Virus record (IMG/VR): IMGVR_UViG_2778261121_000002
Length of the DNA stretch: 8,595 nt
Direction: 5' to 3' (one strand)
DNA from: a virus
Lineage: Duplodnaviria > Heunggongvirae > Uroviricota > Caudoviricetes
Part shown: piece after piece, positions 2,615 to 8,310 of the stretch
How the letters are laid out: each line of letters opens with the position of its first letter
Numbering within the stretch: position 1 is the stretch's first letter
The notes under the pieces: model-generated
What the model was told of the DNA's origin: nothing
Databases searched by the model: none
Seen by the model: the letters and a program-made list of their open reading frames with translations, nothing else
Translations under genes and position numbers: made by a program

Positions 2615-2661
2615 AAAAAAAATTAAAAAACGCTTGCAATCTTTTTTCTCATATCGATAAT
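2615..2661 (+). promoter_or_regulatory. Sigma70-type promoter with upstream A-tract
   Basis: A-tract 2615-2630 (aaaaaaaattaaaaaa), -35 TTGCAA (2634-2639), 16-bp spacer, -10 GATAAT (2656-2661). About 60 nt upstream of the 2722 start. Confidence 0.6.
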
Positions 2662-2721: not shown

Positions 2722-3372
2722 ATGGCTAACATTATCATTTCTAAAAAATCCATCATTGAAGCTGCTTCCATTGTATCCGATGAACTGCGCGAAAAAGCAG
2801 ATCTGGCAACTCAAACATATAACGAACATTATAAAAATGGTACGCACACTAAAGCAGACAAAGCAAATATGCAAGCTGCGACCACTAAACTTGCTTACTT
2901 CATCAACAACGTTGTAAACGCTGTAGAAGACGAAAAATTATGCTCTGTTTTCTACTATGCGATTAAAGCAAGCAAACAAGCGCCAGAAGTATTTTTCCGT
3001 GATGCTATGACTAATAGTTATTCACTGGAAAAACTGGTTTATCTGGTTAAATCCATTAAAGCTGGTAAATGTGTTTATTCCGTCGCTGATATGTCTGGAT
3101 CTCGTGTATTCGCTTTAATCGATATGATTAACGACGAGATCGACACGTTCACCAATGGCGCTGTTTTCGACTTAATGAATGAAGCTAAAAAAGCGTGTGA
3201 AATTAAATTGGACGTTGGCTATACTCAAGCCAACCAGTTGATCAATCTTTGCGAACGTCTTGGACTTGTTGAAAAAGTCAAAGGAATGGGAAGCGCCAAA
3301 GCTGGTACACAGCAATATCGCTTTATCAAGAATGATTTCTACAATTATTTAGCTGATGCTTTCAAAGCGTAA
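2722..3372 (+). CDS. Hypothetical protein (216 aa), first gene of a three-gene operon
   Basis: RBS taaggat 7 nt upstream of ATG. Long ORF with non-repetitive composition. No motif recognised by eye. Confidence 0.8.
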   Translation: MANIIISKKSIIEAASIVSDELREKADLATQTYNEHYKNGTHTKADKANMQAATTKLAYFINNVVNAVEDEKLCSVFYYAIKASKQAPEVFFRDAMTNSYSLEKLVYLVKSIKAGKCVYSVADMSGSRVFALIDMINDEIDTFTNGAVFDLMNEAKKACEIKLDVGYTQANQLINLCERLGLVEKVKGMGSAKAGTQQYRFIKNDFYNYLADAFKA

Positions 3373-3385
3373 TTAATGGAATCAT

Positions 3386-3405
3386 GCGCCCACTATGGGC
3401 GCTTT
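3386..3405 (+). promoter_or_regulatory. Intra-operon hairpin (attenuator or RNA-processing candidate)
   Basis: gcgccca-cta-tgggcgc followed by only ttt, then the RBS aaggag. The same 20-mer recurs at 3882-3901 as part of a terminator. Confidence 0.4.
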
Positions 3406-3420
3406 AAAGGAGCTTTAAAA

Positions 3421-3624
3421 ATGGTCAGCTATGACAAGATCCGCGCGGAATATCGCGCAAAGTATCGCGCTTACAAACTGGAATTAATCGATTATTTGAT
3501 CGCGCAACGCGACCAATTAAATTTTACGTTTTCTGATTTGCTTAACAGCAAGCGAGATTGCAAGCGCAAACGTGAATACTTACGTTTAAGCGCATTAATC
3601 GGAAAACTTCAAAATTCTATTTAA
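3421..3624 (+). CDS. Hypothetical small basic protein (67 aa)
   Basis: AAGGAG 8 nt upstream of the ATG at 3421. The longer ORF from 3376 lacks an RBS and overlaps the hairpin. Lys/Arg-rich sequence. Confidence 0.6.
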   Translation: MVSYDKIRAEYRAKYRAYKLELIDYLIAQRDQLNFTFSDLLNSKRDCKRKREYLRLSALIGKLQNSI

Positions 3625-3644
3625 TTTTTTTAAGGAGCTTAATC

Positions 3645-3875
3645 ATGTTTGTTCTTATCGCTGGCGTTAACGTCCATAACGAATATTATGTTAATCGCAT
3701 CGCTGGGATCGCTGGTTACGCTGGGCGCGCAGTCGCGCTTATAGATGAAACGACGCGCAAAATTGACTTATTGAGCGACCAGGAGCGAAAAAAAGCAGAC
3801 GTGAACGACGCTGATATATTTTTAATGTTAAAAGCGTTTGTAGAAATGGGATTTGAAATCAGTTTACATAAATAA
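3645..3875 (+). CDS. Hypothetical protein (76 aa)
   Basis: AAGGAG 7 nt upstream of ATG; followed directly by tandem terminators. Confidence 0.65.
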   Translation: MFVLIAGVNVHNEYYVNRIAGIAGYAGRAVALIDETTRKIDLLSDQERKKADVNDADIFLMLKAFVEMGFEISLHK

Positions 3876-3880
3876 AATCG

Positions 3881-3904
3881 AGCGCCCACTATGGGCGCTT
3901 TTTT
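3881..3904 (+). terminator. Rho-independent terminator 1 of the plus-strand operon
   Basis: 8-bp GC-rich stem agcgccca / tgggcgct with a 3-nt loop, then a run of six T. Confidence 0.75.
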
Positions 3905-3925
3905 CGTTTCCAATACTCCCACCAT

Positions 3926-3951
3926 AACGCGCCAATGATGGCGCGTTTTTT
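3926..3951 (+). terminator. Rho-independent terminator 2 (tandem)
   Basis: 9-bp stem aacgcgcca / tggcgcgtt, loop atga, then ttttttatt. Confidence 0.65.
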
Positions 3952-4053
3952 ATTGTCTTTAACTCACTCCAACAACATAAAAATAAGCGCAAAAAATAAC
4001 GCCATAGACGCGCTTTTATATCCTCGCCAGTATATACCCATTACTTAACATAT

Positions 4054-4364: not shown

Positions 4365-4486
4365 CAGCCGTTTCCCGAAAAAATCCTGGCCGTTTCCCGT
4401 CGGCTCATGAATACGTTCCTCGCCGTTTCTGAAAATTTCCCTGCGGCAGCTGGTGGCTATAGAGAAAGGGCCGTTTCTGGCCCTCT
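4365..4486. repeat. Iteron array 1: four direct copies of CCGTTTC(C/T)
   Basis: CCG of each copy starts at 4368, 4390, 4423 and 4471 (spacings 22, 33, 48 bp). Copy 3 reads ccgtttctgaaaatttccc. Confidence 0.6.
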
Positions 4487-4975: not shown

Positions 4976-5049
4976 GATTGATTCCTTATCGTAAATAACA
5001 AATTGTTTTCTTGTTGGTGTTAATTATCGTTGTACGAATAAGGCGTCAA
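4976..5049 (-). promoter_or_regulatory. Conserved promoter/leader module A
   Basis: Minus-strand reading: TTGACG, 15 nt, GATAAT, then TAACACCAACAAGAAAACAATTTGTT..., RBS, ATG. The core GATAAT + 10-11 nt + AGAAAACA is shared with modules B, C and D. Confidence 0.6.
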
Positions 5050-5063
5050 AGTGGAAAGTTACG

Positions 5064-5135
5064 GTAGCCGGACGGGAACAGGTGGGTTTGTCGGTTGCCT
5101 AGAGGTAAGAGGTTGGTGTTTTTAGCCTGCGGGGA
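5064..5135. repeat. Dispersed ~70-bp repeat, copy 1
   Basis: cggtagccgg...aggtgggtttgtcggttgcct...agaggttggtgttttt aligns with cggtagcctg...aggtgggtcttttcggtagcct...agaggttggttgttttt at 8246-8310. Confidence 0.5.
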
Positions 5136-5178
5136 ACAGGATGGTCATTTAAGGCCACCAGCATTGGCAGCCTATATA

Positions 5179-5716: not shown

Positions 5717-5775
5717 CTGCTTTCCTCTTGTTTTCTTGTTGTTGTAATTATCGCAGTGTAGATAAGGTAGAAAAC
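5717..5775 (-). promoter_or_regulatory. Conserved promoter/leader module B
   Basis: Minus-strand reading: TGcGATAAT (extended -10), then TACAACAACAAGAAAACAAGAGGAAAGCAG, ATG. The -35 is weak. Confidence 0.5.
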
Positions 5776-6663: not shown

Positions 6664-6728
6664 CACAACTCCGTAAACAACTTGTTTTCTCAATGGCGTA
6701 AATAATACCAGTAAGAAAACGGCTACAA
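6664..6728 (-). promoter_or_regulatory. Conserved promoter/leader module C
   Basis: Minus-strand reading: TTGTAG, 15 nt, TGgTATTAT, then TTACGCCATTGAGAAAACAAGTTGTTTACGGAG..., ATG. Confidence 0.55.
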
Positions 6729-6789
6729 AGCATATTGATCAGGTGCATGAGCGATATGCAGGTTCTTCCCTGCGGCTACAGATTAAGTT

Positions 6790-7147: not shown

Positions 7148-7212
7148 AAAGCAATCCTTAAACAACATGTTTTCTTGATGGTGTTATTATCGCAATAACG
7201 CATAGGCGAAAA
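7148..7212 (-). promoter_or_regulatory. Conserved promoter/leader module D
   Basis: Minus-strand reading: TGcGATAAT, then AACACCATCAAGAAAACATGTTGTTTAAGGATTGCTTT, ATG. Confidence 0.55.
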
Positions 7213-7473
7213 AGGATTTTGTTCCGGTAAATGTGGTTTTGGCAGTGAGTTTTCAGGTTCAGTACCGAGTACACTTTTTACATTATTCTGATTTAGTGGC
7301 CGAAAGTGGCTGGTGGCAGAGTAATCCTCTCCCCAAAAACCTACTGAAATCGATTGTGACCCGTTGGCTGTCTGGCACAATTACGCTGTAGCTGGGCATT
7401 CAGAGGGAATCCAGCGGTAAGCAAGTCCGCCTACGTGAGCGCCTCTCTTCTTCCCGCACATTACAGGTGGGTA

Positions 7474-7646
7474 GCCGCAACTTTCCCTCTCGCTATACCG
7501 GTACGCCACCGTTCCTGAAACGGCATCGAGCCTTCTCCCGAAATCCACACAGGCAACTCGACCGTTTCCCTGAAAATCCCCAGCCGTTCCCCGAAGGCAA
7601 CCCAGCCGTTTCTGTAGCGGGATGCAACCTTTTCCCTGTATGGACG
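7474..7646. repeat. Iteron array 2: about seven direct copies of CCGTTTCCC(T)GAAAA-like units with 22-bp phasing
   Basis: Copies begin near 7476, 7509, 7531, 7562, 7584, 7606 and 7628 (spacings 33, 22, 31, 22, 22, 22), e.g. accgtttccctgaaaatcccc, agccgttccccgaaggc, agccgtttctgtagcgg. Confidence 0.65.
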
Positions 7647-7756: not shown

Positions 7757-7790
7757 CTATACATGTTGTGTTTTCTTCGTGTTTTATCTG
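7757..7790 (-). promoter_or_regulatory. Degenerate fifth copy (module E) of the conserved promoter/leader motif
   Basis: Minus-strand reading: GATAAA-ACACGA-AGAAAACA-CAACATG. It shares the AGAAAACA core but has different spacing and no downstream gene. Confidence 0.3.
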
Positions 7791-8245
7791 TTTCAACCTC
7801 TCTATAGGCGTTAATGCTCACTCCTTCCAGAACGTTCTATACGGCGACTATTTCTGTTGGTGAATTGGGTGTGTTGTTTCCCTGTCGGTGTATGTGGTTT
7901 CGTTAGTTTTGCGGTGGTTCTTCTATGGGGTGTTCTCGTCGTTTTGGTGATTGTTCTTCTCCGTGTATGGAGTAATAGCAGGTGGGCGATTGCTTTCGTT
8001 ATTGTGTTTGAGTTGTTTGACTGGAGTGTGTGGAAGGCTTTTGTAGTTATTCGTGTATTGGGTAATGGCATTTCCCGTGATTGTTATGTTTCGTGTCTTT
8101 TGGGATTGAGAGAAGCCTTGCGGTTACAGGCTTCGTTGGGGTTTCAGCGGTTCAGGTGTTTCTTCGCTGTTTGGGTAATGGCGTGTCGTGGGTATCGCGC
8201 GTATGAATGTTTTCGGATTGCCTGTGAAAGTTAGGTTGGTTGTCC

Positions 8246-8310
8246 GGTAGCCTGGGGAGAAGAGGTGGGTCTTTTCGGTAGCCTGCCATAAAGAGGTTGG
8301 TTGTTTTTGG
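8246..8310. repeat. Dispersed ~70-bp repeat, copy 2 (internal sub-repeat cggtagcctg twice)
   Basis: Aligns with 5064-5135; see copy 1. Confidence 0.5.

Follow-up and report, generated by a model that had tools for sequence, protein, structure and literature searches.

A terminator-like hairpin repeated at the borders of optional genes in SSU5/pHCM2-like phage-plasmids

We analysed an 8,595-nt stretch of DNA (IMG/VR record IMGVR_UViG_2778261121_000002; hereafter the window), which belongs to an SSU5/pHCM2-like phage-plasmid, and concentrated on a hairpin that occurs in it twice, next to a row of three genes, g1, g2 and g3 (Table 1). The 20-mer GCGCCCACTATGGGCGCTTT is present exactly at 3386-3405 and 3882-3901 on the + strand and nowhere else exactly. 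No third match was found in the window with up to 3 mismatches allowed, and none of 200 dinucleotide-preserving shuffles contained any 20-mer match. The similarity reaches further upstream, over 34 nt at 85% (3372-3405 versus 3868-3901). The first copy lies between the stop codon of g1 (3370-3372) and the ATG of g2 at 3421, and is followed by TTT and then by AAAGGAG. The second begins 6 nt past the stop codon of g3 (3873-3875) and continues into T6 (3899-3904). We refer to a copy with a gene downstream as internal, and to a copy with no gene after it as terminal. The first-pass annotation had described an identical hairpin used twice, with three T after the internal copy and six after the terminal one, and all of this was confirmed. 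It had taken the operon for a two-gene unit, which we corrected to three genes.

The internal copy folds into a 7-pair stem and the terminal copy into a 9-pair stem (-15.5 kcal/mol, z = -4.0). A consensus terminator scan passed over the internal copy; it flagged the terminal one, along with a second hairpin at 3926-3947. The terminal copy has both sequence characteristics of an intrinsic terminator, a GC-rich stem with a short loop and an adjacent T-tract, and is therefore predicted to terminate transcription, as the first-pass annotation had proposed. The internal copy lacks the U-tract. It is not located at the end of a transcription unit either, as g2 starts 18 nt downstream of it. The junction between g2 and g3 has no hairpin and is unstructured (-1.1 kcal/mol).

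Table 1. Features of the g1-g2-g3 locus (positions are those of the window)
Feature	Position	Strand	Description
Promoter-like site TTGCAA-16-GATAAT	2634..2661	+	A-rich tract before it; candidate g1-g2-g3 promoter; consensus match 9 of 12
g1	2722..3372	+	216 amino acids (aa); phrog_1513; predicted N-terminal helical bundle and C-terminal winged helix
Internal hairpin copy	3386..3402	+	arms GCGCCCA/TGGGCGC, centre CTA; exact repeat unit to 3405
Short T-run (T3) merging into g2 leader	3403..3420	+	Shine-Dalgarno AAGGAG at 3407-3412; replaces the terminator U-tract; terminator score -3.9
g2	3421..3624	+	67 aa; optional cassette gene; phrog_6145; carried by some relatives and missing from others
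g2-g3 junction without hairpin	3625..3644	+	T7 plus AAGGAGCTTAATC; an identical leader follows a hairpin copy in relatives
g3	3645..3875	+	76 aa; optional cassette gene; phrog_1585
Terminal hairpin copy and T6	3880..3904	+	17-mer at 3882-3898, stem extendable to 3880-3900; T6 at 3899-3904; intrinsic-terminator-like
Second terminator hairpin AACGCGCCA-ATGA-TGGCGCGTT and T-run	3926..3953	+	hairpin at 3926-3947, -14.8 kcal/mol
Tails of the two copies			internal, TTTAAAGGAG; terminal, T6CGTTTC

To find out how the hairpin behaves among relatives, we used a first set of 16 annotated relatives and a second set of 85 further loci gathered by g1 homology alone, so as to avoid selection on the hairpin, giving 102 parsed loci in total (g1 identity 61-100% aa). 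A scan of genome contigs yielded 5 loci, and one error-rich contig (L262) was uninformative. The 17-mer was found 3' of g1 in all 16 annotated relatives, with varying genes downstream, and a hairpin follows g1 in every parsed locus that reaches far enough. It has the form 7+3+7 (arm, centre, arm) and recurs 1-3 times, bordering optional small genes. With HP standing for a hairpin copy and g3' for a paralogue of g3 that replaces g3 or stands before it in some relatives, the commonest architecture was g1-HP-g2-HP (30 loci), followed by g1-HP-g3-HP (21), g1-HP-g2-g3-HP (19; as in the window), g1-HP without any cassette gene (12), g1-HP-g3'-HP (6), g1-HP-g2b-HP-HP (4), and g1-HP-g3'-HP-g3-HP and g1-HP-g2-g3'-HP (3 each). 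The genes g2, g3' and g3 could form eight subsets, of which seven were found, always in the same order; only the g2-g3'-g3 array was missing among the parsed loci.

The two arms, GCGCCCA and TGGGCGC, are unchanged in 193 of 195 copies. In L173 and L174 the outer pair is changed from A:T to G:C with the pairing preserved. The 3-nt centre is CTA in 158 of the copies and its inverse, TAG, in 22, and the rarer centres likewise occur in inverse pairs (TTA/TAA, TTG/CAA and TCA/TGA). Among 75 distinct g1 alleles, diversity was 0.002 in the stem and 0.27 in the loop, compared to 0.31 at third and 0.04 at second codon positions of g1, and the longest invariant run within g1 was 8 nt. The canonical hairpin is retained beside g1 homologues of only 47-54% identity with unalignable flanks, and it is located 9-13 nt past g1 even at 47-61% identity.

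The T-runs of the two classes of copies are sharply separated. Internal copies have T1-4 merging into the next ribosome-binding site (91 of 91), while terminal copies have T5-7 in 102 of 104 cases, the other two having C plus T6 and a stem that is longer by one G:C pair. Terminator scores of the type of d'Aubenton-Carafa et al. (1990), which we computed with ViennaRNA energies and which serve as a guide only, were +19 to +36, well above the threshold, for the terminal copies and -27 to +8, at or below it, for the internal types.

The hairpin is separated from the next ATG by 17-20 nt. In a consensus scan, no promoter-like site was present in 3372-3645, neither copy was adjoined by promoter-like hexamers, and apart from the candidate site upstream of g1 the only one on the + strand up to 3645 was a weak one within g1 (3197-3225). 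As 17-20 nt leave no room for a promoter, and none is seen in 3372-3645, g2 and g3 would be transcribed only through the internal hairpin. It follows, as a matter of logic from the sequence, that the internal copy would be a leaky terminator at most. The first-pass annotation had offered it as a possible partial terminator, or else as an RNase-processing or protein-recognition site; the attenuating part of this proposal remains plausible, as does RNA stabilisation, and only a leaky form of termination is compatible with the missing T-tract and the required read-through.

Expression data are available for a close relative, phage Cyrano, in which the arrangement is g1-HP(T4)-g3-HP, from gene-level RNA-seq in E. 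coli LF82 (PMC9928086, S1 Table). Both g1 and g3 were at the detection floor in LB lysogens and rose only at 6 h in macrophages, along with the capsid gene. The g3/g1 ratio at that time, the sole condition with signal, was ~0.4-0.5, from low counts and gene-level values. Such a ratio is compatible with partial attenuation at the internal hairpin and is no proof of it. An expectation, guessed from codon usage and the promoter, that g1 is highly expressed in lysogens was wrong, CYRAN_113 being at the detection floor in LB-grown LF82.

The hairpin coincides with breakpoints between related genomes. In four loci (L007, L140, L182 and L189), identity to the window is 82-83% before the first hairpin and rises to 92-96% beyond it, as well as past the last hairpin. 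When the comparison is with SSU5-type loci, the pattern is reversed: identity is ~90-92% before the hairpin and falls to 52-76% after it. Identical cassettes are joined to differing downstream backbones, and an identical post-hairpin leader stands before differing genes; the hairpin, together with its T-run/AAGGA or AATC flanks, is the sole block that all junctions share. A deletion derivative was also found. L010, the plasmid pAVS0747-B, belongs to the E. coli clade, whose other relatives all carry cassettes, and save for 2 single-nucleotide polymorphisms it is the predicted product of recombination between the two repeats of the window. In L175 (IMGVR_UViG_2880329822_000001), a rare two-base variant of the loop is found in both copies, as ATCAT in one and in the opposite orientation, ATGAT, in the other, which points to copy-to-copy conversion with inversion. 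Together with the frequent loop flips, this points to template switching at a DNA hairpin. In the clade of the window, the g2-g3 junction has kept the post-hairpin leader and lost the hairpin. SSU5/pHCM2-like elements encode RecA-like and exonuclease genes.

As the alignments show, a single conserved hairpin stands at the 3' end of g1 and borders the optional cassettes, and the end points of exchange and deletion lie there. We infer that the copies arise and are homogenised through template switching or through recombination driven by homology. Since the gene order is fixed, the arrays may have come about by loss and replacement from a fuller ancestral set more probably than by insertion.

We propose that the hairpin is the stem of the Rho-independent terminator of g1, reiterated by recombination at cassette junctions, with the internal copy read through and the last copy terminating; we assign this reading a probability of about 0.72. 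According to it, the stem ending g1 in SSU5-like phage-plasmids would also be the junction where the small promoterless genes g2, g3 and g3' sit, each cassette having the form [short T-run + ribosome-binding site + ORF (open reading frame) + hairpin]. Recombination between hairpins, within a genome or between co-resident relatives, would add, swap and delete cassettes and would also keep the hairpin copies identical, and the two exact copies in the window would exist because of it. The last copy alone would keep T5-7 and terminate, with the related terminator at 3926-3953 as a backup. Polymerase would read through the internal copy, where T3 precedes the g2 ribosome-binding site. This copy would at most lower downstream transcription, or protect the 3' end of a processed g1 mRNA after cleavage in the AU-rich leader, in either case leaving g1 above g2 and g3.

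Several points weigh against this proposal. For homologous recombination of the RecA type, a block of 17-20 nt, or ~30 nt including the shared T-run and AAGGA, is short. The hairpin-free g2-g3 junction of the window indicates that a copy is not required at each boundary. The arms are invariant down to ~50% g1 identity, and the 7 core pairs show no compensatory change; such invariance goes beyond structural need and leaves room for a sequence-specific reader. The terminator function of both copies is read from sequence only, the terminator score that separates them combines a 1990 formula with modern folding energies and is a guide only, and the Cyrano ratio comes from low counts at the gene level, both genes being at the detection floor in the other conditions.

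The internal copy could instead be kept mainly as a regulatory device, either a tuned partial terminator or a hairpin for RNase processing and 3'-end stabilisation that would set g1 above g2 and g3, and the identity of the copies would then come from selection. We regard this as a serious but tentative possibility. The internal copy is kept before the first cassette in all 91 cassette-bearing loci with a stem as invariant as that of the terminal one, its T-run is shortened but never to zero, and its leader is AU-rich and single-stranded, a typical context for RNase E; the Cyrano ratio also fits. The spread of the internal tails from T1 to T4, with the corresponding range of scores, speaks against a tuned set-point, and a whole clade has lost the g2-g3 boundary hairpin while retaining the genes. 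The mosaic breakpoints and the deletion derivative show recombination at the hairpin whatever the regulatory role. A regulatory role thus complements, rather than excludes, the reiteration of a terminator stem by recombination.

The invariance of the arms around a free 3-nt centre is the signature of a dimer site, and raises the question of whether the 7-3-7 palindrome is the DNA or RNA site of a specific protein, with the winged-helix protein g1 as a candidate and a roadblock, a regulator or a recombination cofactor as conceivable roles. The position of the palindrome, always 9-13 nt past g1, the modelled C-terminal winged helix, with a putative recognition region more conserved than the rest of the protein, and the rarity of stem substitutions compared with the neighbouring terminator (1% versus ~13%) all agree with this. 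But any strong terminator stem would give the same signature, a relaxed backup terminator accounts for the contrast with the second terminator, and the strict T5-7 at the terminal copies and the position after stop codons fit termination. The fold matches of g1 are weak (E >= 0.02), no site was found near promoters or elsewhere in a 108-kb genome, and the A:T to G:C change of the outer pair in L173 and L174 left the pairing intact. We regard a protein site as improbable. We give equally little credit to a combined form, in which the frozen palindrome would be both a terminator stem and a cognate site, most simply of g1, and the pair would control cassette read-through or recombination. A dedicated cassette system of the integron or IS200/IS605 kind, with an enzyme reading the folded single strand, would explain promoterless ORFs that each end in the same hairpin, the copy number of 1 to 3, and the loop flips, which show a DNA hairpin active in template switching or recombination. 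We consider it very unlikely: the gene order is never permuted, the cassettes occupy a single locus, unlike attC, the site is only 17-21 nt long and has perfect pairing, and no integrase or transposase is found beside the hairpin in the window. In addition, some crossovers fall in the T-run/AAGGA or AATC flanks with no fixed point, as expected of homology-driven exchange. That the two copies are due to chance or to misassembly, for which the shortness of the repeat could be cited, is refuted by the shuffles and by the occurrence of the two-copy arrangement in dozens of independent assemblies from several genera.

We compared the hairpin with known systems. It resembles intrinsic terminators in having a GC-rich 7-9-bp stem with a short loop right after a stop codon and, at the terminal copy, T6, and its internal copy resembles the weak, leaky terminators found within operons, with a truncated U-tract. 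It differs from them in that one stem is reused 1-3 times per short operon and is frozen across genera, with internal copies systematically devoid of a U-tract. In its evolutionary role it comes nearest, among described systems, to the promoter-early stem-loop (PeSL) of T4-type phages, a repeat that combines a terminator stem-loop with a sigma-70 early promoter and mediates modular shuffling (Arbiol et al. 2010, PMC2839356; Comeau et al. 2014, PMC4122927). In both cases, a repeated terminator stem-loop motif flanks small non-essential ORFs, and the end points of indels and replacements between related genomes coincide with the motif. The present hairpin is without the promoter half and is joined instead to a T-run and a ribosome-binding site, and whereas PeSLs are dispersed over hyperplastic regions, it is confined to one locus (complete 108-kb relative, up to 3 substitutions allowed). 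It appears to work like a PeSL, but it is not one.

Intercistronic stem-loops and repetitive extragenic palindromic (REP) elements, for example at malE-malF, stabilise the upstream mRNA, and a stable hairpin could similarly block 3'-5' exonucleases and raise the upstream product over the downstream one. REP sequences and bacterial interspersed mosaic elements are dispersed host repeats with many copies, while the hairpin is a perfectly paired 17-21 nt at a single locus of the element (host chromosomes were not scanned). Classical morons have their own promoter and are expressed in the lysogen. The optional genes resemble morons, under the working definition of PMC9928086, in being small accessory genes between conserved genes and ending in a terminator; they differ in lacking a promoter, and in LF82 lysogens the unit is silent. 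With integron cassettes they share an array of promoterless ORFs of variable content, each followed by a palindromic site. An attC site is an imperfect palindrome of 55-140 nt with R/L boxes and extrahelical bases, while the site described here is a perfect palindrome of 17-21 nt in an array of fixed order at a single locus, lacking integrase, attI and Pc. No integrase domain was found in the window ORFs around the array, and the integrase of a relative is ~50 kb away. In lambda-type nut boxB, the N protein reads a conserved loop; here the loop is variable (0.27) and flipped in 22 of 195 copies. The attC, REP and boxB readings were each rejected on a defining feature.

The hairpin is specific for its locus. 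In the complete 108-kb relative, the motif occurs solely as two copies at this locus, and ~34 other terminator-like hairpins have unrelated stems; the idea of a genome-wide standard terminator was rejected on this account. Homologues of g3 in viral contigs lie downstream of g1 in 35 of 35 loci, so that cassettes mobile to other loci were likewise rejected. A scan of viral contigs gave 30 arm-carrying loci with a g1, g2 or g3 homologue and 5 unrelated loci with a CTA/TAG loop. In one unrelated phage contig (L054, IMGVR_UViG_3300033075_000927, 2146-2202), the 17-mer with loop TAG stands just upstream of a ribosome-binding site and an ORF, and a similar hairpin with the same core, CTGCCCATAGTGGGCAG, is found ~23 nt before it; this contig has no g1, g2 or g3 homologue. 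We found no description of the hairpin in the searchable literature, and no Rfam 15 family reached its gathering score. The best Rfam match, the small RNA Hrs1 on the minus strand at 3888-3954 (32 bits against a threshold of 56.4), spans both terminators and is most likely an effect of the tandem hairpins. A literature search on the pHCM2 transcriptome gave nothing useful.

The second terminator hairpin at 3926-3947 has a GCGCC core in common with the main hairpin, and is located where distant relatives (L115, L220-223) carry a further canonical copy in tandem. Its loop also flips between relatives (ATGA/TCAT, TTGT/ACAA and TTGA/TCAA). Single stem-disrupting substitutions occur in ~13% of loci, against 1% for the main hairpin, and this looser stem is as would be expected of a backup terminator. 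Just past the internal hairpin (3403-3420), two UUUAAA stretches on either side of the g2 Shine-Dalgarno are paired by RNAfold, and this weak AU helix could modulate translation of g2.

The g1 family is restricted to SSU5-like elements of Enterobacterales. An AlphaFold model of g1 (predicted local distance difference test score 82.8, predicted template modelling score 0.75) has an N-terminal helical bundle and a C-terminal winged helix, with weak Foldseek matches in the PDB (E >= 0.02) to the winged-helix domains of MukE, TubR, RTP and PadR type; within the protein, conservation is highest in the putative recognition region. Diversity at first, second and third codon positions is 0.091/0.052/0.264 in g2 and 0.053/0.031/0.102 in g3. 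This order, third above first above second, indicates coding-type constraint and hence real genes. We found no Pfam domain in g1, g2 or g3 and no credible function attached to their PHROG families. A "MIT/CorA transporter" label for g2 was rejected, being incompatible in size with 67 aa. A longer ORF at 3376-3624, which would place the hairpin inside g2, was also rejected, since its upstream ATG exists in the E. coli clade only; the annotated 204-nt g2 has the conserved ribosome-binding site.

The closest records to the window are the Escherichia phages CMS-2020a, PhiR41_1 and Cyrano, and the 1.5-kb region has matches in 769 PLSDB plasmids from Klebsiella, Escherichia, Enterobacter, Yersinia, Salmonella and other genera. 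Elsewhere in the window, the 271-aa ORF at 23-838 has an HNH endonuclease domain (PF01844, E = 5e-5) and is probably an insertion specific to the strain; matches to the closest relatives begin at 789-1250 and leave most of it unaligned. A 64-nt direct repeat (94%) is present at 1707-1770 and 2073-2136. It is the 3' end of a Flag1_repress-type regulator gene (1244-1765) and recurs after ORF 1769-2065, which, like ORF 2141-2440, has a signal-peptide-like N-terminus; the region looks like a gene inserted or duplicated with a repeated junction, near the hairpin array. A repeated leader of 30-55 nt (families D1 and D6; 4997-5051, 5729-5755, 6676-6730, 7161-7215 and 7769-7795) stands before each small minus-strand gene, and forms a reiterated promoter/5'-untranslated-region cassette in an apparent hyperplastic region. 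Some of these genes, e.g. CYRAN_109 and CYRAN_111, are expressed in LF82 lysogens. Iteron-like repeats are found in two places ~3.1-3.2 kb apart, 4368-4404 and 7562-7620 for one pair and 5065-5145 and 8248-8301 for the other. They comprise the families CCGTTTCCCG... (D3) and TAGCC.GG...AGGTGGGT (D4/D5) and may be protein-binding arrays.

The observation of a repeated hairpin was correct, and its double use is mainly a matter of cassette history at a recombination-prone terminator. The locus is a compact natural case in which one hairpin is both a regulatory element and a junction for recombination. It also gives an account of how a gene lacking a promoter can be placed after a conserved one: retention of the hairpin is combined with loss of the U-tract, and expression comes from read-through. 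For annotation, it is a caution that an intra-operon "terminator" hairpin may mirror cassette history and not tuned regulation. In phage-plasmids of the SSU5/pHCM2/pMT1 type, which are common in clinical Enterobacterales and are known carriers of resistance genes, accessory genes have a small plug-in slot bounded by one terminator stem; if the slot is exploitable, it would offer a defined site at which to follow or engineer gene gain and loss.

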